NCBI GenBank assembly: GCA_937927795.1
Contig: CALBSF010000204.1
Span: 1 to 41,665 of the forward strand
DNA length: 41,665 nt
Direction: 5' to 3'
Origin: an uncultured Rickettsiales bacterium
GTDB lineage: Bacteria; Pseudomonadota; Alphaproteobacteria; Rickettsiales; UBA1997
Position numbers and translations under genes: made by a program. The number at the start of each line of letters is the position of its first letter. Position 1 is the stretch's first letter. Shown piece after piece: positions 1-26,812 of this stretch. The notes under the pieces were generated by a model. It was not told where the DNA came from, did not search any database, and saw nothing but the letters and a program-made list of their open reading frames with translations.

Positions 1-3000
1 GGAAGAGAATTAACTTTGAGCTCAACCGCGATTACCAACGATGATTCAATTTATGCTGGTAATAAAATTAACATCACCGCCTCAAATTATCTTACTAACA
101 ATAAAGACATAATTTCTCTTGGGCTTGGCTTAACTGATGAAACTACTGATGACGGCATCTTGATTACTGCAAAAACTCTGAATAACAATAAGCAAATTGC
201 TGCTAAAAATAATATCACCATCAATTCAAATGCTCTTAACAACAATACTTCAAACAGCAAAATCCTTGCGCTTAACGACATCAATTTAAATGCGGTTTTG
301 GTTGATAACAGTAACGCCAATATCAAAGCAGCAAATAATCTTGTTCTTCGCAATCTAACTTTAAATGCGCCAACAATTGCTGGAAATTTTGGCGTTACTA
401 ATCAGGCAACCAGCCTAACTAACACTAACGGAACTTTTTACGCTGGCAACTTTCTTGATTTTGATTTGGGGAATTTAGCTGATTACACAATCATTGGAAA
501 TCTTCAAAGTTCAGGAAATTTAAAGATAAAAGCAAACAACATCACTAACCAAACTAACCTTCAAGCTGATGGCGATATTGAAATTGAAGCGGCTGATAAA
601 TTCATCAACGGCGTTTTATCAGGTGATAATTCTAACACCAAAATTACTTCAGGAGCCGATCTAAAAATCACTTCGAACAATCTTTTAAGCAATTACGCAA
701 CCCTTTCATCGGGAACTGATCTTGCTCTTACCTCAAGATATGGAAACATTAACAACAACACTAATGCCGAGATTATTGCCGGTAAAAGATACCAAGTAGA
801 ATTAGAAGATGGTAGCAAGGTTTGGATTAATACCGGTGCTTTATCACTTTTGGCAAAAAACGGAACTGTTAATCAAAATTCTTTAAACTCGATTGTTGTT
901 AATGGCGATTATTCTTTGGATGTAACTGATTTTGTAAATACCGGACGCGTTGATGTTGCCGGAAATTTAACGCTGAATGTTTCTAACAATTTGGTGAATG
1001 AAGCATATGCCATGATCTTTTCCGGTGGCAATATGAACCTGAATGTTGCTGGTAGTCTTATCAATAATTATAGATCGGTAATTTACTCTGAAGGCAATTT
1101 AACGATTCAAAAATATGCAGAGCTCAATTCTGACGGAAGCGCAAATCCGCTTTACAATCCTTTAAACAACCGCATAACTTCACTTACCAATTATGGTAAT
1201 ATCGAAACTTATCTCGGTAAAAATATCACCATCAAAGCTGAGAATTTTTTAAATAGCAGAACTGTTGATCCGGTAAGTGGGCTTATCGGCACTAACACTA
1301 ATTGTGTATTAACTGGCGGTGGTGGAATTGATTGCGGCGCATCAACAGCATATAGAAAAGCCGCTAATCACGATCTTTACAGTTGGACATATACTGGCGG
1401 CAATAATTGGGGAGAATTCGGTCGCACCAACTATTACACCACAACTCAAGGAACTGCCAATTCTGCTTCAAGAGCTGCAATAATTTCTTCGGGCGGAACG
1501 TTAAACATCGATTCAGGAACATTCAGCAATTACATATCGGAAATTTATTCCAAAGGCAACATGACGATCAGTGCTAACAACACTGATAATTTTAATAAAT
1601 CATTTACTTATGGAAGAACAGTAACTTTAACCGAAGTTTATGACGGAATTGGGGGCTGGCCATCTTGGTGCGGTGGTGGTAGTCCGTGCAGAAATAATTC
1701 TTACTCTTTCTCAAACTACGCCACTTCTAATGCCTATATTAAATCAGGTGGATCGCTAACTGTTACCAGAAATGGTTCCACAACAACTTCCTGGACCAAT
1801 GGTTCTGATATGGATGATTATGCTGCCGTGGGTGGCGGCGAAGGAAGAGATTTAAATTTAGTGAATAACATCGATGTTAATGTTTTAGGAACTACTGGCA
1901 CAGTTAATACTGACATAAGCGGATATTTTAACGGACCTGACAACAACGGATTATTTAACAGAAATCCAAATCCAAACGGACCGCTTTTTGAAACTAGAAG
2001 CCAATTTATTGATCAAAGTAAATTCTTCGGCTCTGATTATTTTTATCAAAGAATCGGTCTTGATCTAACCGATGTTCAAACTCAGTTCGAATTGCAAAAT
2101 AAAAGATTGGTTGGTGATCAGTTTTTCCAAACAAAAATTATTGAGGAACAACTTCGCACCATTTCTAAAAACTCATTTTTACTTTCAGCAAACGAAACCA
2201 ACATCAATAATGAAATCAAAAATCTTCTTGATAATGCCGCTGATGAATATGCTCGTTTAGGATTAAGCACTAACGCAACACTTACTCAAAGCCAAATAAA
2301 CAGCCTACAAAAAGACATTATTTGGTTTGAAACCAAAACCATTGATGGAAATCTTTATATTGTTCCAACGATTTATCTGACTCAAGCAACAAGAGATGCT
2401 CTTAAAAATGGTAATATTGCCTCACAAGCCACCATCTTTGGTAAAGACTCTGTCACCATAACTTCAAATGGTGGCATCAAAAATTCAGGATCAATCGTTG
2501 GTAGCAATGTTACACTTACTGCAAGCAATGATATCATAAATAAAAATTTCTCTGATATCACCGCACTTAATAATTTAAGCCTAACTTCTACTGCCGGTTC
2601 AATCACCAACTTTTCACAGCTTAAAGCCACAGGTGCTTTATCAATTTCTGCTGCTAAAGACATCACAAATACCTCAACAGTTTTAACCAATGCTAAAAAC
2701 CTTCTTGATAGCGAAAATGTTGCTTACTTACAAAGCAATGGCGGTGCCTCAAATAGCGGAAATCTTAAATCAACAATTTTTGAAACTGCGGGAATTTCTG
2801 CAGGAAGCCTAACTGTTAATGCTGGAAATGATTTTACTAACCAAGCGGCAAATATCACAGCAACAAAAAATACCTTAGCTGATAGCTCTACTACTTCAGG
2901 AAATCTTTCAATCACAACCGGTGATGATATCACTATCAGCACTTTAGAACTTCGCAATCGAACCGAAGAATATTGGGGACATAAAAGTAAAGGTGGCAGC

Positions 3001-6000
3001 AAAATCACCGATACAACAACTAATGTCGCAAGTAATATCAATATTGGAGGCAATCTTGATATTACTTCAACCGGACTTTCTGACACTGCAACCACCGCCA
3101 GCATCAATATAATTGGCAGCAATGTAAATGTTACAGGAAACGGCTCTCTAACTTCTGATTTTGGCAATGTTAATATTGCTAATGCGATTGATTCGAAGAT
3201 GACTGAAGAAACTTCTTCTAAATCAGGAACTTTCCATTCTCGTTATGATTCAGTTTATGATTACAAAGAAACTGCCGCTGAATCAAAATTAAATTTCGGT
3301 GGAAATTTAACTGTTAATGCTGAACTTGGAGAAACAAACTTAATTGGTTCAACTATTAAAACCAACGGTAATCTAAATATTGGCAGTTTCATGATTGCAC
3401 AGAATCTTGACGGATCATATAAAACAAATGCTGACGGAACTTTCCAAACTGTTGATGGTGGATCAGTTGTCGGTGTAAATATTAAAGCAGCAGAACTTCG
3501 AAGTGAGCATTTTGAATCTCATCAAAAATCTAAATTAACTCTTGGTGACACTTTAAAAACTTTAGCTAACCCAGTTAAAATGGGCAAACTTGCTCTTGAT
3601 GCTTATTTATTCATGGCAACTCCAAGCCTTAAAAAAGATGTTTTAGAATTTAATCAAGGTCCGAAATATGAAAGAGCTTCTGCAAAAAGCAGTACTGCAA
3701 CCACCACTCAATATTCATCTACTTTAGATGTTGGTGGCAATATGATAGTCAATTCAACTGGTGATGTTAATATTGTTGCTTCAAATGTTAATGTGACAGG
3801 AAACGCTTTAATGAATGTTGATGGCAATGTTAATGTGCTTTCAGCAGCAGAAAAAACCACCTCAAGCAGCAAGACCGAAGAAATTGAAATTGGTAAATTC
3901 AAATTAACCAGAGATTTAGCTCACGCCTCTGCTTCTGCCGGTGTTGAAGGAACTGGCTCAAGATTTGAAGATTTACTCATAAGCTCAACACAGAAATCAT
4001 CAAATATAAACATTGGCGGATCAATGCTTGCTAATGTTACAAATAATGCAGCAACTCCAGATTCTGGCAATCTAACTCTTGCCGCTTCTAACCTAACAGT
4101 TGGCGGAGATTCCATCATTAAAACAGCAGGAGATTTTAACTTAACTGATGCACAAAATACCTCATCTTACTCTAGCAAAGAAAGCACTTTAACAGTTGAA
4201 GCTGGAGCTAAAGTTGGTAACGCCTATGTTGATGTTGCTTACGCTTGGAAAGCTGTAGTTGATGCACAAAAGAAAGCAATTGAAGCTGTAGAAAAACTTA
4301 AAAAAATGGAAAGATTGCAAGATGAAGGTAAAGCAACCGCAAAAGCTGTTGAACTTGCTGCTGCCCAAGTTGTTTTAGCTCAAACCGCAGTAGCAACTGC
4401 AACTATTGCTGCCTCAGCGGCAACTGCCGGTGCTGCGAGTGCTGCTTCAACTTCCCTGGGAAGCGGGATGTATGCAGCGGGATATTTAAACATAACTTCA
4501 AGCGGAATAAAAAACACCACTGAAACTTCACTATCAAAAGCATCTAACTTTGTTGGTTATGGCGACATCGACATTGCTTCAAACAACAATGTAAATGTTC
4601 TTGGTAGTATGCTTGCTTCAGTTAATGGCAATGTATCTCTAGCAGCAGCCAATGACATTAAAATTGAAGCCGGAACTAACACTCTTTCTCAAACCAGTAA
4701 ACAAGAAACAATTTATGGTGGTGGAAGTGTTGGAAATAATGGCGTTCAAGCAAATTTCGGATTATCAAGCGGTCAATCTGATTATAACAAAATTTCTTAC
4801 ACTAACAGCCAAATCAGCGCAGAAAACGGAGCTCTTAACTTAACCACCGGCAATGATGCTAATATAAACGGAGCAAATCTTTTAGCTAAAAACATAAATT
4901 TAAGTATTGGCAATAACCTCAATGTAAGCAGCAAACAAACTGAGGAAGATTTCTCAAGCAGCGGATTTGGATTTAATTTTGGAGTTGGTGTTGGAGCAAG
5001 CGGCAACGGCGGAAATGTTGGTGGTGGATTTAACATGAGCAACGCTGATATGCACCGCCTTTGGGTTGATAATATCACCACCATCAAAGGAACTGACAGC
5101 ATGGCAGTTAATGTCGGCAAAGACTTAAACTTAACTGGCGCAGCACTTCTTTCTGACAATCTTGCACTCGCAGTAAGTGGTAACGTAAACAAAAAAGACC
5201 TAAACGACAGCTACTATTCTGAATCAATGGGCTTTGGTTTCTCGCAAAACTTCACAACTAATGGAAATCAGCCAACAATACCAGGAACTGGTGGACAACC
5301 GAATCAATTCCCTGGTGGCTCAACCACAATTTCAGGAAATTACGCGCAAAATGAATCATCAAGATCGGTTTATGCAACAATTGGCGGACTTAATTCAACT
5401 TTAACTTCCGCAACTAAAGATGTTACTGGTGGTGATTTTGAAGGAAGTTTGACTTTGGATCATAGGCTTTTCTCTGAATCTGGAAGAAGCGATATCTTAA
5501 AACAACTGAACTACAGTAAAGATTTAGTGGTGATTCCAGTCGGAACTCTTTACGAGGCTTACAATCAGAAAGGAGAAATAAGAACGGCGGCAGATGGAAC
5601 AAAACAAGGCGGTGGAACTAATGTCATTGATTCACTAGGCAACAAATATTCTACCCTTCAGGATTTAATGTTTAATCCTAAACTAACCGCTAAAGAAGTA
5701 GCTCCAGATTCAAAAGAACTAATCGCTTATGATGGAAATGATATTAATAAAAATTCTGATGCTGCTGGTGCCAGAGAATTTTATGATAGAAGCAAAGATA
5801 CTTTAGCAGTTAATATAGGAGCAAATCAAACGGATGCGGAATATGCAGGAGCGTTATCTCATGGCAACTATCATGCTCAGGTTGATAACAAAGGTATATT
5901 ATACTCACAAGCTGAAGAAAATACTGCTCATAATATTGGGGATTTCACGCAAAGCAGATGGGATACCTATCAATCTGGTAACACCAATTTCCAATTAACA

Positions 6001-6735
6001 CTTCCGACAGTAATTGCGGGCAACAATAGTTATGCGAATGGAGTGGTGTTCAACAATAATGTAAACCCTCTTATTATTGATAAAGCAGCCAATGCCATTA
6101 AGCCTGGTTTAGGCGACTCCATGAATAGTGGTCTTAAAAATTTCAAAGAAAATTCTTTAAACAACATTGCTGATAAATATGTAAGTTCAAAAGACCCAAT
6201 AGAAAAAGCCGGATTAGCCGTAATGCTAGGAATTGGATCAGTCGCTCTGCCAGAATCAGTCACTGATTTAGAGCTTACTGCTGCTATAGGCGGAGCAAGT
6301 AAAGCTTACGCTCCACAGCTTGCAGTAGGAGCTAATAAGGTGGATGATGCAGCGAGTGGATTGTGGAATAAGTTGTTTAGGGGGTCTGCTGAAGTTGCAA
6401 ATCCAATTCCTGAGAATTTAGCTAGAGTTGTTGCAGGAAGTAAGCCTCCGACCATGCTAGGGTTACCAAATAGCTCAGATGTTTTTGTAACAGATGCTAA
6501 AATTTTAGAAGGATTAAAGCCTTCAGAAATTTCACATTTATTAAAAATAGAAAAAAGTAATAGCTACAGCATAACCACCATTCCTTCAAAAGAGGTTACA
6601 GGAATAGCAACGCCAATAAATAGAACTAATCCTGGTTTTGTCGGTGGTGGAAGAACCGTTAACGGAGCTCCTGAATTTGTTATACCCAATGGACCGATAC
6701 CAAGTAACGCAACAACAAAAATTGTAACGGAATGA
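1..6735 (+). CDS. cdiA: CdiA/FhaB-family two-partner-secretion exoprotein, 5'-truncated by the window edge, with a polymorphic C-terminal toxin region
   Basis: The frame is open from nt 1, so the real start lies upstream of the window. Long arrays of Asn/Gly/Ser/Thr/Ile-rich ~20-aa beta-helix repeats (e.g. 'GNLTLNVSNNLVNE', 'GGNLDITSTG', 'GGNLTVNAELG') are typical of filamentous haemagglutinin repeats. A conserved FhaB/CdiA block is present ('FETRSQFIDQSKFFGSDYFYQRIGLD...LVGDQFFQTKII...DIIWFETKTIDGNLYIVPTIYL'). The non-repetitive last ~225 aa follow a degenerate VENN-like 'VVFNNNV'. An immunity-like ORF and a TpsB gene lie directly downstream. Confidence 0.9.
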   Translation, partial: GRELTLSSTAITNDDSIYAGNKINITASNYLTNNKDIISLGLGLTDETTDDGILITAKTLNNNKQIAAKNNITINSNALNNNTSNSKILALNDINLNAVLVDNSNANIKAANNLVLRNLTLNAPTIAGNFGVTNQATSLTNTNGTFYAGNFLDFDLGNLADYTIIGNLQSSGNLKIKANNITNQTNLQADGDIEIEAADKFINGVLSGDNSNTKITSGADLKITSNNLLSNYATLSSGTDLALTSRYGNINNNTNAEIIAGKRYQVELEDGSKVWINTGALSLLAKNGTVNQNSLNSIVVNGDYSLDVTDFVNTGRVDVAGNLTLNVSNNLVNEAYAMIFSGGNMNLNVAGSLINNYRSVIYSEGNLTIQKYAELNSDGSANPLYNPLNNRITSLTNYGNIETYLGKNITIKAENFLNSRTVDPVSGLIGTNTNCVLTGGGGIDCGASTAYRKAANHDLYSWTYTGGNNWGEFGRTNYYTTTQGTANSASRAAIISSGGTLNIDSGTFSNYISEIYSKGNMTISANNTDNFNKSFTYGRTVTLTEVYDGIGGWPSWCGGGSPCRNNSYSFSNYATSNAYIKSGGSLTVTRNGSTTTSWTNGSDMDDYAAVGGGEGRDLNLVNNIDVNVLGTTGTVNTDISGYFNGPDNNGLFNRNPNPNGPLFETRSQFIDQSKFFGSDYFYQRIGLDLTDVQTQFELQNKRLVGDQFFQTKIIEEQLRTISKNSFLLSANETNINNEIKNLLDNAADEYARLGLSTNATLTQSQINSLQKDIIWFETKTIDGNLYIVPTIYLTQATRDALKNGNIASQATIFGKDSVTITSNGGIKNSGSIVGSNVTLTASNDIINKNFSDITALNNLSLTSTAGSITNFSQLKATGALSISAAKDITNTSTVLTNAKNLLDSENVAYLQSNGGASNSGNLKSTIFETAGISAGSLTVNAGNDFTNQAANITATKNTLADSSTTSGNLSITTGDDITISTLELRNRTEEYWGHKSKGGSKITDTTTNVASNINIGGNLDITSTGLSDTATTASINIIGSNVNVTGNGSLTSDFGNVNIANAIDSKMTEETSSKSGTFHSRYDSVYDYKETAAESKLNFGGNLTVNAELGETNLIGSTIKTNGNLNIGSFMIAQNLDGSYKTNADGTFQTVDGGSVVGVNIKAAELRSEHFESHQKSKLTLGDTLKTLANPVKMGKLALDAYLFMATPSLKKDVLEFNQGPKYERASAKSSTATTTQYSSTLDVGGNMIVNSTGDVNIVASNVNVTGNALMNVDGNVNVLSAAEKTTSSSKTEEIEIGKFKLTRDLAHASASAGVEGTGSRFEDLLISSTQKSSNINIGGSMLANVTNNAATPDSGNLTLAASNLTVGGDSIIKTAGDFNLTDAQNTSSYSSKESTLTVEAGAKVGNAYVDVAYAWKAVVDAQKKAIEAVEKLKKMERLQDEGKATAKAVELAAAQVVLAQTAVATATIAASAATAGAASAASTSLGSGMYAAGYLNITSSGIKNTTETSLSKASNFVGYGDIDIASNNNVNVLGSMLASVNGNVSLAAANDIKIEAGTNTLSQTSKQETIYGGGSVGNNGVQANFGLSSGQSDYNKISYTNSQISAENGALNLTTGNDANINGANLLAKNINLSIGNNLNVSSKQTEEDFSSSGFGFNFGVGVGASGNGGNVGGGFNMSNADMHRLWVDNITTIKGTDSMAVNVGKDLNLTGAALLSDNLALAVSGNVNKKDLNDSYYSESMGFGFSQNFTTNGNQPTIPGTGGQPNQFPGGSTTISGNYAQNESSRSVYATIGGLNSTLTSATKDVTGGDFEGSLTLDHRLFSESGRSDILKQLNYSKDLVVIPVGTLYEAYNQKGEIRTAADGTKQGGGTNVIDSLGNKYSTLQDLMFNPKLTAKEVAPDSKELIAYDGNDINKNSDAAGAREFYDRSKDTLAVNIGANQTDAEYAGALSHGNYHAQVDNKGILYSQAEENTAHNIGDFTQSRWDTYQSGNTNFQLTLPTVIAGNNSYANGVVFNNNVNPLIIDKAANAIKPGLGDSMNSGLKNFKENSLNNIADKYVSSKDPIEKAGLAVMLGIGSVALPESVTDLELTAAIGGASKAYAPQLAVGANKVDDAASGLWNKLFRGSAEVANPIPENLARVVAGSKPPTMLGLPNSSDVFVTDAKILEGLKPSEISHLLKIEKSNSYSITTIPSKEVTGIATPINRTNPGFVGGGRTVNGAPEFVIPNGPIPSNATTKIVTE

Positions 6736-24030: not shown

Positions 24031-24129
24031 GGTGCGCAGTTGGTGCGCATTTTTAAGTTCTAATCAATAAACAACAGCATTCGCAAGGTGCGCACCTGAA
24101 GCAATTTAGGTGCGCATTTTTTTTGCGCA
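24031..24129 (+). promoter_or_regulatory. Array of GGTGCGCA repeats (four copies) plus one TGCGCA, upstream of the C5-methyltransferase
   Basis: GGTGCGCA occurs at 24031, 24042, 24087 and 24109. TGCGCA occurs at 24124. The copy at 24087-24096 is a perfect 10-bp palindrome, GGTGCGCACC. Three copies are followed by T-runs. Confidence 0.6.
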
Positions 24130-24147
24130 TTTTTTAAGAAAGATTAC

Positions 24148-25548
24148 GTGTGGATTTACATCCCTTCAGAATTTTATCCCTCTGTTCAGGAGTTGGAGGC
24201 ATCGAGCTTGGATTTAAGCTCGCAGAGCCAACTGCTCGAACAGTCTGTTATGTCGAGATCGAAGCCTTTGCGTGCGAAATCTTGGCTCGCCGCATGGAAG
24301 AGAAAAGATTGGATGCAGCGCCTATTTGGACGAATCTTAAAACCTTCAATGGCAGACCTTGGCGCGGCAAAGTGGATTGCATCACTGGCGGATATCCCTG
24401 CCAGCCGTTTAGTGTTGCTGGAAAAAAACTTGGCACAAACGACCCAAGACACCTCTGGCCAGACATCAAACGACTCATCACAGAAATCGAGCCACCAATC
24501 TGCTTCTTTGAAAATGTCTCCAACCATTTACGAGTTGGATTTGAAGAAGTCGCAAATGACCTACGACAAATGGGTTACAAAATTAAGGCAGGCTTGTTTA
24601 CAGCGCAGGAAGTTGGTGCTCCTCACCAAAGAGAAAGATTATTTATCCTGGCCTACAGTGATAGTTTCGGATCATCTTTGCAATCCGACAGAAACACCTC
24701 AACGCTGGAAAGAAAGAGCGCAGGAGAAAAAAGCAGAAGGAATCAATTTACACAAACCTCTGAGGATTGTTGCTCAGGAAGCATGGCCGACAATAACAGT
24801 GACCGATGCTTCGGTGATGAAAGCAAGACCACCGGAAAAAATGATCAGGAAAGATGGTCGCAACACGTTGAGGAATCCATCTCTGGCGGAAACAATTTTG
24901 CAGCCACAGGATTTTCCAAAGAGCAAAACGGATTTACAGAACAAGATTCAAGGTTTGCCTTACCAGACGAAGAAAGTCTGGCCAACTGTGACAACCCAAG
25001 ACTACAAGAAACGCGGACCGAATTCGATTCAACAAGGATTGCACGAGGAAAGCAGGAACTGGCCGACAGTCAGAACTTCATCTGCAAATGGTGCGAGCAA
25101 GAAAGAAATCGAGATGGGGAATCCAAAGCAGAGGCTGGAAGTTATGATAACGAACTGGCCGACTCCGAGAGCTCAGGAGCCAGGAAGCACGAGCGAGAAT
25201 TATGGCAAGGGTCTGAAAAATACAGCAATCAATTGGTTAACCCCAACTGTGTCAGATTCGGAAGCGGGTTTCAAAGAGAGAACTGGCGACAACATAATGA
25301 TGAGACTTCAGGATCAATCACTGAGAACGACAAAGCAATTTTCGGATGGCCGCCAAGTCCCTCAGATTATGAAAGATGGAACAGAGTCCCAAATCACCTT
25401 AAACCCGCGCTTCACCGAATGGCTGATGGGATGGCCTGTCGGGTGGACAGAATTCGAGCTTGCGGAAACGGAGTGGTTCCACTGGTTGCGGCTTATGCGT
25501 GGCGAACTCTTACGAATGGAATGTATCTTACAAAAGACAATTAACTGA
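24148..25548 (+). CDS. Second full-length ORF in the +1 frame of the methyltransferase gene (WPT-repeat protein ending in 'NPRFTEWLMGWPVGWTE')
   Basis: It is open for 466 codons on the same strand. Its 3' two-thirds contain six 'W(P/L)T' repeat units (SWPTVIVSD, AWPTITVTD, VWPTVTTQD, NWPTVRTSS, NWPTPRAQE, NWLTPTVSD) and a C-terminal motif that I recall from phage methylase-type proteins. The true start is unknown; one candidate is ATG 24556, and frameshifting is an alternative. The 5' third looks non-coding. Confidence 0.4.
   Translation: MWIYIPSEFYPSVQELEASSLDLSSQSQLLEQSVMSRSKPLRAKSWLAAWKRKDWMQRLFGRILKPSMADLGAAKWIASLADIPASRLVLLEKNLAQTTQDTSGQTSNDSSQKSSHQSASLKMSPTIYELDLKKSQMTYDKWVTKLRQACLQRRKLVLLTKEKDYLSWPTVIVSDHLCNPTETPQRWKERAQEKKAEGINLHKPLRIVAQEAWPTITVTDASVMKARPPEKMIRKDGRNTLRNPSLAETILQPQDFPKSKTDLQNKIQGLPYQTKKVWPTVTTQDYKKRGPNSIQQGLHEESRNWPTVRTSSANGASKKEIEMGNPKQRLEVMITNWPTPRAQEPGSTSENYGKGLKNTAINWLTPTVSDSEAGFKERTGDNIMMRLQDQSLRTTKQFSDGRQVPQIMKDGTESQITLNPRFTEWLMGWPVGWTEFELAETEWFHWLRLMRGELLRMECILQKTIN
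24150..25544 (+). CDS. DNA (cytosine-5)-methyltransferase
   Basis: Motif I 'LCSGVGGIELG', motif IV 'GGYPCQPFSVAGK', motif VI 'FENV', motif VIII 'APHQRERLFILA', motif X 'RVDRIRACGNGVVPLVA'. The start is GTG as given in the ORF track. The middle ~220 codons are low-complexity and charged. Confidence 0.85.
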   Translation: MDLHPFRILSLCSGVGGIELGFKLAEPTARTVCYVEIEAFACEILARRMEEKRLDAAPIWTNLKTFNGRPWRGKVDCITGGYPCQPFSVAGKKLGTNDPRHLWPDIKRLITEIEPPICFFENVSNHLRVGFEEVANDLRQMGYKIKAGLFTAQEVGAPHQRERLFILAYSDSFGSSLQSDRNTSTLERKSAGEKSRRNQFTQTSEDCCSGSMADNNSDRCFGDESKTTGKNDQERWSQHVEESISGGNNFAATGFSKEQNGFTEQDSRFALPDEESLANCDNPRLQETRTEFDSTRIARGKQELADSQNFICKWCEQERNRDGESKAEAGSYDNELADSESSGARKHERELWQGSEKYSNQLVNPNCVRFGSGFQRENWRQHNDETSGSITENDKAIFGWPPSPSDYERWNRVPNHLKPALHRMADGMACRVDRIRACGNGVVPLVAAYAWRTLTNGMYLTKDN

Positions 25549-25549
25549 T

Positions 25550-26812
25550 ATGGATGATTTTGCACCAAAAATGGCAGATCACATCGAACTGAAATCGGTC
25601 GATGAATTGATCCCTTATAGCAAAAATGCACGGCTTCACTCAGAGGCGCAAGTGGCACAAATTGCCGCCAGCATCATTGAATTTGGTTTTACCAATCCAG
25701 TTTTGATTGATGGTGAAAAAGGAATAATTGCGGGTCACGGAAGATTAATGGCAGCAAAGAAACTTGGCTTAAAAGAAGTTCCAGTTGTCGTCCTTGATCA
25801 CTTAAGTGAAACACAAAAGAAAGCCTACATCATCGCTGATAACAAGCTCGCTGAAAACGCTGGCTGGGATGAAGAAATTTTGGCAAGTGAGCTCGCTGAT
25901 CTTAAAGACGAAAATTTTAATCTCGATCTGATTGGTTTTGAAGATCAGGAATTAGAAAAAATTTTTGCTAATCTTTATGAAAAAGAAAATGAGCAAGAAA
26001 CAGAGGAAATTCCCGAACCTGAAGAAAAGCCAATCTCAAAGTCAGGTGATGTTTGGATTTTAGGAAAACACAAATTGATCTGTGGCGATTCCACTGATCA
26101 AAAAACTTACCAAACACTTCTTGGTGATGAATTAGCAGATATGCTTTTCACCGATCCACCTTATAACGTGGATTACGGCAACACCATGAAAGACAAAGCC
26201 AGAGGCAATAACAAAAAAATTCTCAACGACAATCTTGGTGAAAATTTTGAAAAGTTCCTTTTCGATTTTTGCAAAAATGCTTTAGAGATAACCAAAGGCG
26301 CGTGTTATGTCTGCATGAGTTCTTCAGAGTTGCACACTTTACAAAAAGCCTTCACAGATGCTGGTGGTAAATGGTCAACTTTCATTATCTGGGCAAAAAA
26401 TCACTTCACTCTTGGACGCTCAGACTATCAGCGGCAATATGAGCCGATCCTTTACGGATGGAAACAAAGCAACGATCATTATTGGTGCGGCGATAGAAAC
26501 CAAGGCGATGTTTGGTATTACAACAAACCAAACAAAAGCGATCTTCACCCAACGATGAAACCAGTTGAGCTTTGCAAAAGAGCAATTCTCAACTCCAGCA
26601 AAACTGATGATATAATTTTGGATTGCTTTGGCGGCTCTGGCTCAACGCTGATTGCATCGGAACAAACCAACCGCAGATGTCGCATGATCGAGCTCGATCA
26701 AAAATATGTCGACGTGATTGTAAAAAGGTGGCAAAATTTGACCGGCAAAGAGGCAATCCTTTTAGAAACCGGTGAGAGCTTTAATGAAATTTTAAAAAGA
26801 GAAAATGACTAA
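25550..26812 (+). CDS. ParB-like nuclease domain fused to an N6-adenine/N4-cytosine DNA methyltransferase
   Basis: I chose the start at ATG 25550. The N-terminal ParB-N fold has 'PYSKNARLHS...GHGRLMAAKKLG'. The methylase has 'FTDPPYNVDYG' (motif IV) and 'ILDCFGGSGST' (SAM-binding motif I), which is beta-class order. Confidence 0.9.
   Translation: MDDFAPKMADHIELKSVDELIPYSKNARLHSEAQVAQIAASIIEFGFTNPVLIDGEKGIIAGHGRLMAAKKLGLKEVPVVVLDHLSETQKKAYIIADNKLAENAGWDEEILASELADLKDENFNLDLIGFEDQELEKIFANLYEKENEQETEEIPEPEEKPISKSGDVWILGKHKLICGDSTDQKTYQTLLGDELADMLFTDPPYNVDYGNTMKDKARGNNKKILNDNLGENFEKFLFDFCKNALEITKGACYVCMSSSELHTLQKAFTDAGGKWSTFIIWAKNHFTLGRSDYQRQYEPILYGWKQSNDHYWCGDRNQGDVWYYNKPNKSDLHPTMKPVELCKRAILNSSKTDDIILDCFGGSGSTLIASEQTNRRCRMIELDQKYVDVIVKRWQNLTGKEAILLETGESFNEILKREND

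Follow-up and report, generated by a model that had tools for sequence, protein, structure and literature searches.

A phage locus in which two completely overlapping reading frames probably encode the two subunits of a DNA cytosine-5 methyltransferase

Why would a phage keep the same 1.4 kb of one strand open in two reading frames at once? The question is raised by a temperate phage contig of 41,665 nt (GenBank assembly GCA_937927795.1, contig CALBSF010000204.1, deposited as an uncultured Rickettsiales bacterium; hereafter, at its full length, "the window"), which carries genes for a serine integrase, a primase/helicase, a large terminase, a portal protein and a major capsid protein. Within it, two open reading frames (ORFs) on the plus strand, each with a GTG start, overlap over 1.4 kb: frame A (24150-25544, 464 aa) is alpha-like, comprising a catalytic large domain, a linker and motif X of a DNA cytosine-5 methyltransferase (C5-methyltransferase), and frame B (24148-25548, 466 aa), which is +1 relative to frame A, is beta-like, comprising a leader, a W-P-T region, a motif IX-like segment and a tail. 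We propose that the locus probably encodes a two-subunit C5-methyltransferase from two completely overlapping frames with a shared start, in the manner of M.EcoHK31I; that both frames are translated, that their products associate and that the complex methylates DNA is what we infer from the comparisons below.

The distribution of stop codons across the locus is strikingly one-sided. Between 24148 and 25548 there are 28 internal stop triplets, every one of them in the third frame, while frames A and B carry just their own terminators, and for the stretch 24659-25372 the count is 19 of 19 in the third frame. No other pair of same-strand open stretches of at least 200 codons overlaps anywhere in the window. 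Within codons 171-410 of frame B, 51 codons end in T and 80 precede a codon beginning with AA, AG or GA, such that 17 coincidences would be expected under independence and none is seen. W[PL]T occurs six times in the same frame (residues 168, 213, 278, 305, 337 and 363). An initial annotation of this DNA had already listed the two ORFs with their coordinates, lengths and one-nucleotide offset, the 19 stops confined to the one remaining frame, the six W(P/L)T repeats of the second frame and the lack of T-ending codons before AA-, AG- or GA-initial codons there, and each of these was reproduced on recounting.

Frame A supplies the catalytic part. Its codons 1-170 (24150-24659) hold motifs I-VIII (FRILSLCSGVGG, GGYPCQPFS, ENV, QRERLFILAY); PF00145 matches residues 6-237 (E 6e-38), the frame aligns to M.HhaI residues 11-174, and phrog_363 matches residues 2 to 457 around an insertion of ~190 residues, with the C-terminal motif X included in the match, which agrees with the C5-methyltransferase motifs and motif X that the first reading had placed in this frame. 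In an AlphaFold model built with a 66-sequence alignment, the predicted local distance difference test score (pLDDT) was ~90 for residues 1-175 and 88 for residues 440-460 (motif X), with a disordered stretch at ~30 between residues 193 and 397, and the folded part matched the large domain of M.HhaI and M.HaeIII in Foldseek (E 1e-12). Set against a single-chain C5-methyltransferase, frame A thus has the motifs I-VIII that form the S-adenosylmethionine (AdoMet)-binding catalytic domain and has motif X in the same chain, and neither a variable region nor motif IX lies between its motifs VIII and X. What stands there is a charged, stop-free linker (24660-25340, codons 171-397) with no amino-acid selection, and because omegaA is 0.83-1.11 in this centre (OLGenie-type estimates here and below), the linker would be a translated-through spacer, open but neutral. 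Given this neutral centre and the lack of any selected variable region or motif IX, frame A alone is without a recognisable DNA-recognition domain. Downstream of the linker, the 'FGWPPSPSDYERW' element (WPPxP..W; 25341-25379) is kept across clades and overlaps a weaker 'GRQVPQIM' of frame B, with P402 and W410 invariant and P401 and P404 nearly so (alignment A3), and it is followed by the motif X region RVDRIRACGNGVVPLVAAYAWRTLT (25440-25514), in whose RVDRIRACGNGVVP residues G439, N440, G441 and V442 are invariant.

Frame B holds the parts that frame A is missing. Its leader (24148-24642, codons 1-165) overlaps the catalytic half of frame A and is open, with constrained residues W55, L59, W76 and R153. 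Codons 166-434 (24643-25449) then form a variable, target-recognition-like region with the six W(P/L)T modules, closed by the motif IX-like LNPRFTEWLMGWPVGWT (LNPxFxEWLMGWPxGWT; 25399-25449), and the tail (FELAETEWFHW..., 25450-25548) is the shadow of frame A's motif X, with variable amino acids. The phrog_1008 'DNA methyltransferase' family matches B residues 276-440 (E 5e-22). Frame B matched no Pfam or NCBIfam family; tblastn against GenBank phages gave nothing at E<=1e-5 (the distant phage cases below came via the frame A search), plasmids gave two weak matches only, and profile searches with the B family and with the motif IX-like segment against PDB sequences found nothing. In the mycobacteriophage Jarcob, a single frame holds motif VIII, LLPTP modules, FSEWMMGWPAGWVT and RIIGNGVVPQQ; hhalign placed B profile residues 401-438 on Jarcob gp70 188-225 (E 6e-8) and A profile residues 403-456 on Jarcob gp70 191-254, which includes motif X (E 9e-10). 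Because both profiles match consecutive parts of this protein, the two frames of the window hold consecutive pieces of what is elsewhere a single chain. PF00145 gives no score to the C-terminal part of Jarcob gp70 or to any B-type protein.

As for the modules themselves, they are gained, lost and swapped as cassettes among homologues (e.g., 'ARPPEKMIRKDGRNVLRTPSLAETVLQP' and 'WPTPRAQEPGSTS'; alignments A1 and A2; loci L003-L162), homologous genes are between ~300 and 550 codons long, and with the exception of one clade described below, frame A stays open through every cassette.

We collected 160 related loci from IMG/VR and GTDB genomes, mostly alphaproteobacterial metagenome-assembled genomes with some isolates (e.g., Rhodobacter capsulatus, Paracoccus), 144 of them with the complete gene. 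Both frames are open from start to stop in 128 of these 144 (~89%), over 350-530 codons and across 44-70% guanine-plus-cytosine (GC) content, with stops closing the third frame. Frame B as a query retrieved 536 proteins, many with 99-100% query cover at 33-40% identity and nearly all without a Pfam domain, and a B profile run against 1.84 billion cluster representatives gave 30,418 matches, more than 12,000 of them at E<=1e-10 and 2,794 at E<=1e-30; frame A has more than 6,000 relatives. The +1 arrangement also occurs in phage C75C1, whose frame A is 31% identical to the window's, and in Synechococcus phage Yong-M2-251. Canonical low-GC controls, by comparison, carry stops in the +1 frame, 10 in Escherichia phage RB16 and 24 in Vibrio phage 1F53_PE004. 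Outside the exceptional clade, nine loci have one stop or frameshift, divided evenly, three apiece, among A's catalytic half, the linker of A and positions affecting frame B, and since the rate is equal in "junk" and selected parts, these are consistent with occasional pseudogenes or assembly errors. With this breadth in mind, the window may well represent a large, unrecognised family of phage and prophage C5-methyltransferases whose catalytic and recognition subunits come from fully overlapping frames and one initiation site.

Some database entries depart from this pattern. Proteins P0089 and P0068 are A-to-B fusion ORFs, the former switching after 'GAPH' and the latter after motif IV, and in locus L093 a 1-nt frameshift interrupts B midway; indels or faulty assembly probably account for all three. 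A given locus may also be entered in databases as the frame A protein or as a frame B 'hypothetical protein' (P0121 versus P0001).

We permuted synonymous codons within the gene (300 shuffles per test), a conservative procedure in that codon usage stays that of the gene itself. With the A protein fixed, 3.5 B-frame stops were expected in codons 1-165 and none is present, and with the B protein fixed, 12.3 A-frame stops were expected in the central 234 codons and again none is present; not one of the 300 shuffles was free of stops, whichever protein was fixed, and the low-GC loci all agree with the window. The initial annotation's suggestion that selection keeps the other frame open is borne out by these results. 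Selection on the encoded amino acids follows a mosaic. In four clades, nucleotide diversity by codon position was highest at third positions of frame A from ~codon 16 to 165 and right after GWT, and at third positions of frame B from the first WPT to ...EWLMGWPxGWT. Similarly, the N-terminal part gave omegaA 0.15-0.21 and omegaB 0.47-0.61, the centre gave an omegaB of 0.16-0.27 against the neutral omegaA reported above, and motif X gave omegaA 0.03-0.20 with an omegaB that is not well determined. Towards the 3' end, the selected segments alternate within ~55 codons from A (WPPxP..W) to B (LNP..GWT) and back to A (motif X).

The leader of frame B, which the first reading of the sequence had described as noise, is indeed weakly constrained overall, and yet a few of its codons coincide with very strong synonymous constraint in frame A. 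Among 50 representatives of 45-70% GC, A residue P58 is CCT in 45/45 (9.7 expected), which sets B residue L59; V75 is GTG in 44/48, which sets B W76; and A152 is GCG in 49/50, which sets B R153. At conserved A residues in the neighbourhood of these three, all synonymous codons are in use. Taken together, the comparative checks proposed with the initial annotation came out on the side of dual coding: the homologues, read in all frames, keep the second frame open; purifying selection acts on A and on B, in different segments for each; and searches connect A with PF00145 and B with phrog_1008 and with 536 homologues of B, even though B matches nothing in Pfam.

How might ribosomes enter both frames? 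The starts overlap as GTGTGG (24148-24153), in which the GTG of B occupies 24148-24150 and that of A 24150-24152, and a Shine-Dalgarno-like AAGAAAG (24136-24142), read from the sequence, lies 6-8 nt 5' of this double start and is the presumed ribosome-binding site common to both frames; relatives have AAGGA or GAGG at equal distance from the start. A first group of loci, the window included, shows the motif [G/T/A]TGTGG in 35/35 distinct contexts, with a valid B start in each that overlaps A's GTG. A second group has ATGCATGAC or TTGAATGAC behind a single GAGG or AAGGA, with an A-frame ATG, TTG or GTG at -4 or +5 from B's ATG. The spacing from A start to B start is 2-5 nt in every locus, and the N-terminus of B, M-(x)-W-[IL]-x-[ILV]-P, is kept between the groups, whereas the residues of A at these positions differ.

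Just 5' of the double start, over 24088-24135, there is a palindrome, GGTGCGCACC (24088-24097), with two further copies, AGGTGCGCA (24108-24116) and TGCGCA (24124-24129), that each precede a T-run, and close relatives show similar 'gcattttttttgcg' contexts. By its sequence this array looks like a terminator or an operator.

We can now state the proposed mechanism. From one Shine-Dalgarno site, ribosomes would start at either GTG 24150 (frame A) or GTG 24148 (frame B) of the same mRNA. Frame A would yield an alpha subunit with the AdoMet-binding catalytic large domain (motifs I-VIII), a disordered spacer of ~225 residues that needs only freedom from stops, the WPPxP..W element, and motif X, which would complete the large domain. 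Frame B would yield a beta subunit with a leader of ~165 residues, the W-P-T variable region and the motif IX-like LNPxFxEWLMGWPxGWT, of which the variable region and motif IX would be the counterpart of the small domain with which ordinary C5-methyltransferases recognise DNA. The two subunits would then associate non-covalently into the active enzyme, as experiments have shown for M.EcoHK31I. Of the options raised by the initial annotation, a genuine dual-coding gene is accordingly the one favoured by the ~89% of 144 loci with both frames open and by the selection on each frame in its own segments.

Several observations weigh against this proposal. The selection mosaic follows, to first order, the canonical single-chain order (I-VIII, variable region, IX, X), which is also what recoding into one chain predicts. 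Modelled alone, B reached a pLDDT of 84-96 for residues 181-270, with low values for the first 160 residues; the monomer is mostly of low confidence and had no fold match in Foldseek, and for this reason it is sequence homology that assigns B its "small domain". The motif IX equivalence itself is a weak one, with hhalign aligning LNPRFTEWLMGWPVGW to motif IX of M.HhaI, LHPRECARVMGYPDSY, at E 1e-3. A weakly constrained leader of ~165 residues is an odd thing to retain, and its omegaB below 1 could stem in part from a known bias of the NN/NS comparison. Finally, one clade of seven loci (L007, L010, L014, L017, L127, L128, L130) has 4-15 stops in the A linker, the first of them just past motif VIII, and nevertheless keeps the A-frame WPPGP...RVDRLRLCGNGVVPLAAAYAFRTL (motif X) perfectly conserved, with a variable tail in B. 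Six of these seven loci have their last A-frame stop within a conserved TGA-(A/G)GG-TGT-GGC-ATG, whose ATG could start an A-frame ORF of ~87 aa (MGN/D...WPPGP...GNGVVP; e.g., L127 2127-3449). An open A linker is therefore not strictly required, and motif X is apparently expressible otherwise; in this clade, the sequence suggests a third polypeptide or a B-to-A shift.

Among the other explanations, the one that survives best is recoding, and we judge it unlikely. Here, one canonical chain would be made by a +1 frameshift past motif VIII into the W-P-T region and a -1 frameshift past GWT into motif X. Such a chain would account for the canonical order of the selected segments; single-frame relatives hold exactly these pieces in one chain, and the exceptional clade closes frame A right past motif VIII with its A-frame motif X still conserved. 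Left unexplained are the stop-free A linker and B leader, B's own conserved start beside that of A, and the synonymous constraint in A at the B-leader residues. Two polypeptides are favoured because only they need the open linker, the open leader and a B start of its own, and because the leader shows codon-level constraint. They are favoured as well because of the A/B/A alternation at the 3' end, in that the A-frame WPPxP..W lies upstream of B's LNP..GWT and a single chain would need four frameshifts. Nor do the junctions look like frameshift sites: a slippery X_XXY_YYZ at the B-to-A junction was found in 0/50 representatives, and the A-to-B junction is just motif VIII, with no conserved shift signal and, in the window, no 0-frame stop. 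The hallmarks of programmed frameshifting, a conserved slippery site with a stimulator and a 0 frame that closes soon, are thus not seen at this locus. To our knowledge, two efficient frameshifts in series would be unprecedented, whereas the production of two polypeptides has an experimentally established precedent in M.EcoHK31I. The +1 frameshift offered as an option by the initial annotation is disfavoured on the same grounds, as it accounts for neither the open linker and leader nor the adjacent starts, nor for the missing slippery sites.

It is improbable, in our view, that the frames encode two unrelated proteins, A being a methyltransferase by itself with a disordered insertion and B an independent product such as a regulator or an anti-defence factor. 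Both frames do appear, from their sequence, to be translated, B is without a Pfam/NCBIfam family or fold match, and its leader has constrained residues of its own. This explanation runs into the neutral centre of A (omegaA ~1, pLDDT ~30) with no selected variable region or motif IX, and into the homology of the selected part of B to the variable and motif IX region of single-chain enzymes. Moreover, the alpha subunit of M.EcoHK31I is inactive on its own (PMC2836561).

Equally doubtful is a mixed mode of expression, in which extra products would be made, e.g., from an internal A-frame ORF running from WPPGP to motif X or by an M.AquI-like shift from B to A that would place motif X on beta, and in which the openness of the A linker would mainly serve to avoid polarity. 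The conserved TGA-(A/G)GG-TGT-GGC-ATG before the ~87-aa ORF of the exceptional clade points in this direction, as do Lilbooboo gp32/33 and FoulBall gp6/5 (see below), in which motif X shares the +1 frame with the variable region and motif IX. In the stretch examined, however, the window has no internal A-frame start codon just upstream of WPPSP, and the openness of the linker is kept as strictly as that of the catalytic part.

An artefact, decay or chance, whether as an indel introduced by sequencing, a pseudogene whose frameshifts compensate one another or a frame left open by base composition, is hardly credible: the P0089 and P0068 fusion ORFs and the nine loci with a single stop or frameshift do show that errors and pseudogenes occur, but the same frame relation recurs in ~150 independent assemblies, in cultured isolates and in phages C75C1, Yong-M2-251 and Shelly, the shuffle tests and the purifying selection in both frames speak against it, the low-GC controls RB16 and 1F53_PE004 do not keep their +1 frames open, and the earlier suggestion of a decaying gene with compensating indels is rejected for the same conservation and selection.

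De novo overprinting, in the sense of a taxonomically young second gene, was considered separately and rejected. The selected part of B is homologous to in-frame regions of actinophage methylases and matches phrog_1008, and the arrangement spans phages of Alphaproteobacteria, cyanobacteria and Firmicutes. Of the 'overprinted' gene in the initial annotation, the dual coding stands, and the novelty that the word implies does not, as the selected part of B has its homologue in the variable and motif IX region that ordinary C5-methyltransferases carry in one chain.

The surroundings of the gene add a few features. Directly downstream, a gene for a ParB-like domain plus N6/N4 DNA methyltransferase (25550-26812, plus strand; phrog_498, E 5e-172) begins with an ATG at 25550, 2 nt past B's TGA and 6 nt past A's TAA, and this spacing suggests that the ParB-domain methyltransferase is translationally coupled to the double-frame gene. 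Opposite the catalytic half lie minus-strand ORFs of 113 and 91 aa (24186-24527 and 24248-24523), which may have arisen by chance or as a side effect of the plus strand's double constraint. Elsewhere, a very large ORF (16-6735, 2239 aa, TTG start) fills the first 6.7 kb of the contig.

If our proposal is true, the ~460 codons of this gene would be among the longest conserved same-strand dual-coding regions in prokaryotes, and the shuffling of recognition modules in and out would have to obey one more rule, an open second frame. Whether bacteria and phages have long overlapping genes on one strand is a matter of controversy, and such genes are routinely dropped during annotation; this family offers unusually clean comparative evidence for such an overlap, together with a mechanistic rationale in the split enzyme. 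Because gene callers retain one frame, thousands of B proteins are listed as 'hypothetical proteins' or the recognition subunit is omitted altogether, both of which affect the prediction of methylomes and of restriction-modification specificity. The neutral-but-open linker and leader would provide a natural model of sequence evolution in which 'no stop codon' is the sole constraint, the overlapping starts would be a model for how start-codon choice could set subunit stoichiometry, and naturally split methyltransferases are useful as scaffolds for targeted-methylation tools. M.EcoHK31I, for its part, would go from a one-off curiosity to the founding member of a widespread phage strategy.

How, then, does the locus compare with known methyltransferases? 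The principle of a beta subunit encoded in another frame inside the alpha gene is known since 1995 via M.EcoHK31I, which was reportedly first described by Lee, Kam and Shaw in 1995 from E. coli HK31. This enzyme is a natural heterodimer in which alpha has motifs I-VIII and X, beta has motif IX, and beta is encoded wholly inside the alpha gene in another frame (PMC2836561, PMC3404938). Co-expression of the two subunits from separate plasmids restores the methylation that alpha alone lacks (PMC2836561), and N-terminal deletions of beta lower the alpha-beta affinity (PMC2836561, PMC3404938). The large domain of M.HhaI likewise comprises motifs I-VIII and X (PMC3404938). Compared by published description, the window resembles M.EcoHK31I in that A holds motifs I-VIII plus X, and a motif IX-like B lies in an alternative frame. 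It differs in three ways: in the window, the 466 codons of B cover the 464 codons of A entirely and the two have a common start site, whereas the beta of M.EcoHK31I is nested; the window's B holds the whole variable region, whereas the literature puts the predicted target-recognition domain of M.EcoHK31I in alpha; and the corresponding part of the window's A is a neutral spacer. A blastn search for M.EcoHK31I in all complete E. coli genomes gave no match. Our searches for literature on this phage family or on overlapping methyltransferase frames returned M.EcoHK31I and M.AquI papers only, and relative to that literature, the complete 1.4 kb overlap, the shared initiation, the placing of the whole recognition region in the second frame and how widespread the family is are not described.

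A nested arrangement like that of M.EcoHK31I is also present in Paenibacillus larvae phage Shelly (gp55/gp56, NC_041909), where a +1 ORF annotated as 'g55 internal gene' has WxTP modules ending in LNPEWVECLMGFPIGWT and motif X lies in the main frame. In contrast to the window, Shelly's B starts at A codon 62 and stops before WPxxxxQYxWE and motif X.

Single-chain enzymes (M.HhaI, M.HaeIII, that of Lactococcus phage D7138 and, apart from its frameshift, Jarcob gp69/70) share with the window the catalytic fold, motifs I-VIII plus X and the order of elements, and the EWxMGxPxGW-to-GNGVVP segment of Jarcob is homologous to that of the window. The difference is that all of their elements lie in one frame, with the +1 frame closed in controls (RB16 and the Vibrio phage). 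In two complete single-frame genes at ~40% GC, those of Lactococcus phage D7138 (L165 1619-2850) and Streptococcus phage Javan318 (L166 1601-2490), the +1 frame is nevertheless open for 140-165 codons across the catalytic half, and this open stretch ends just past motif VIII in a conserved MNWGxMxNGxxLTAKIxExHKTExGxxLSDILEExVxxKYFLS.

The two-polypeptide M.AquI (PMC3404938) and the two-ORF methylases of actinophages are like the window in being split between motif VIII and the variable region. Streptomyces phage Lilbooboo gp32/33 (L168 1595-2651) and Mycobacterium phage FoulBall gp6/5 (L169 1580-2531) each consist of two ORFs, of which the first (motifs I-VIII) ends soon past motif VIII and the second, in the +1 frame, holds the modules, motif IX and motif X; the actinophage second ORFs resemble frame B in their LLPTP/WPTP modules and EW(L/M)MGxPxGW motif. 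In these loci and in Jarcob gp69/70 (L163), the second ORF has a leader with a conserved 'FPxSGMxxNGxL(Y/F)' that overlaps motifs VI-VIII of the first, and many phage records list two 'DNA methylase' coding sequences at such loci. Motif X belongs to the second subunit in M.AquI and the actinophages, whereas in the window it belongs to frame A, and the actinophage ORFs overlap partly, whereas both frames of the window are full length. Since Lilbooboo and FoulBall share it with the window family, a +1 frame change right after motif VIII is, as read from these sequences, a recurrent theme in phage C5-methyltransferases; in the window family motif X stayed in the first frame, and both frames must therefore run the full length of the gene.

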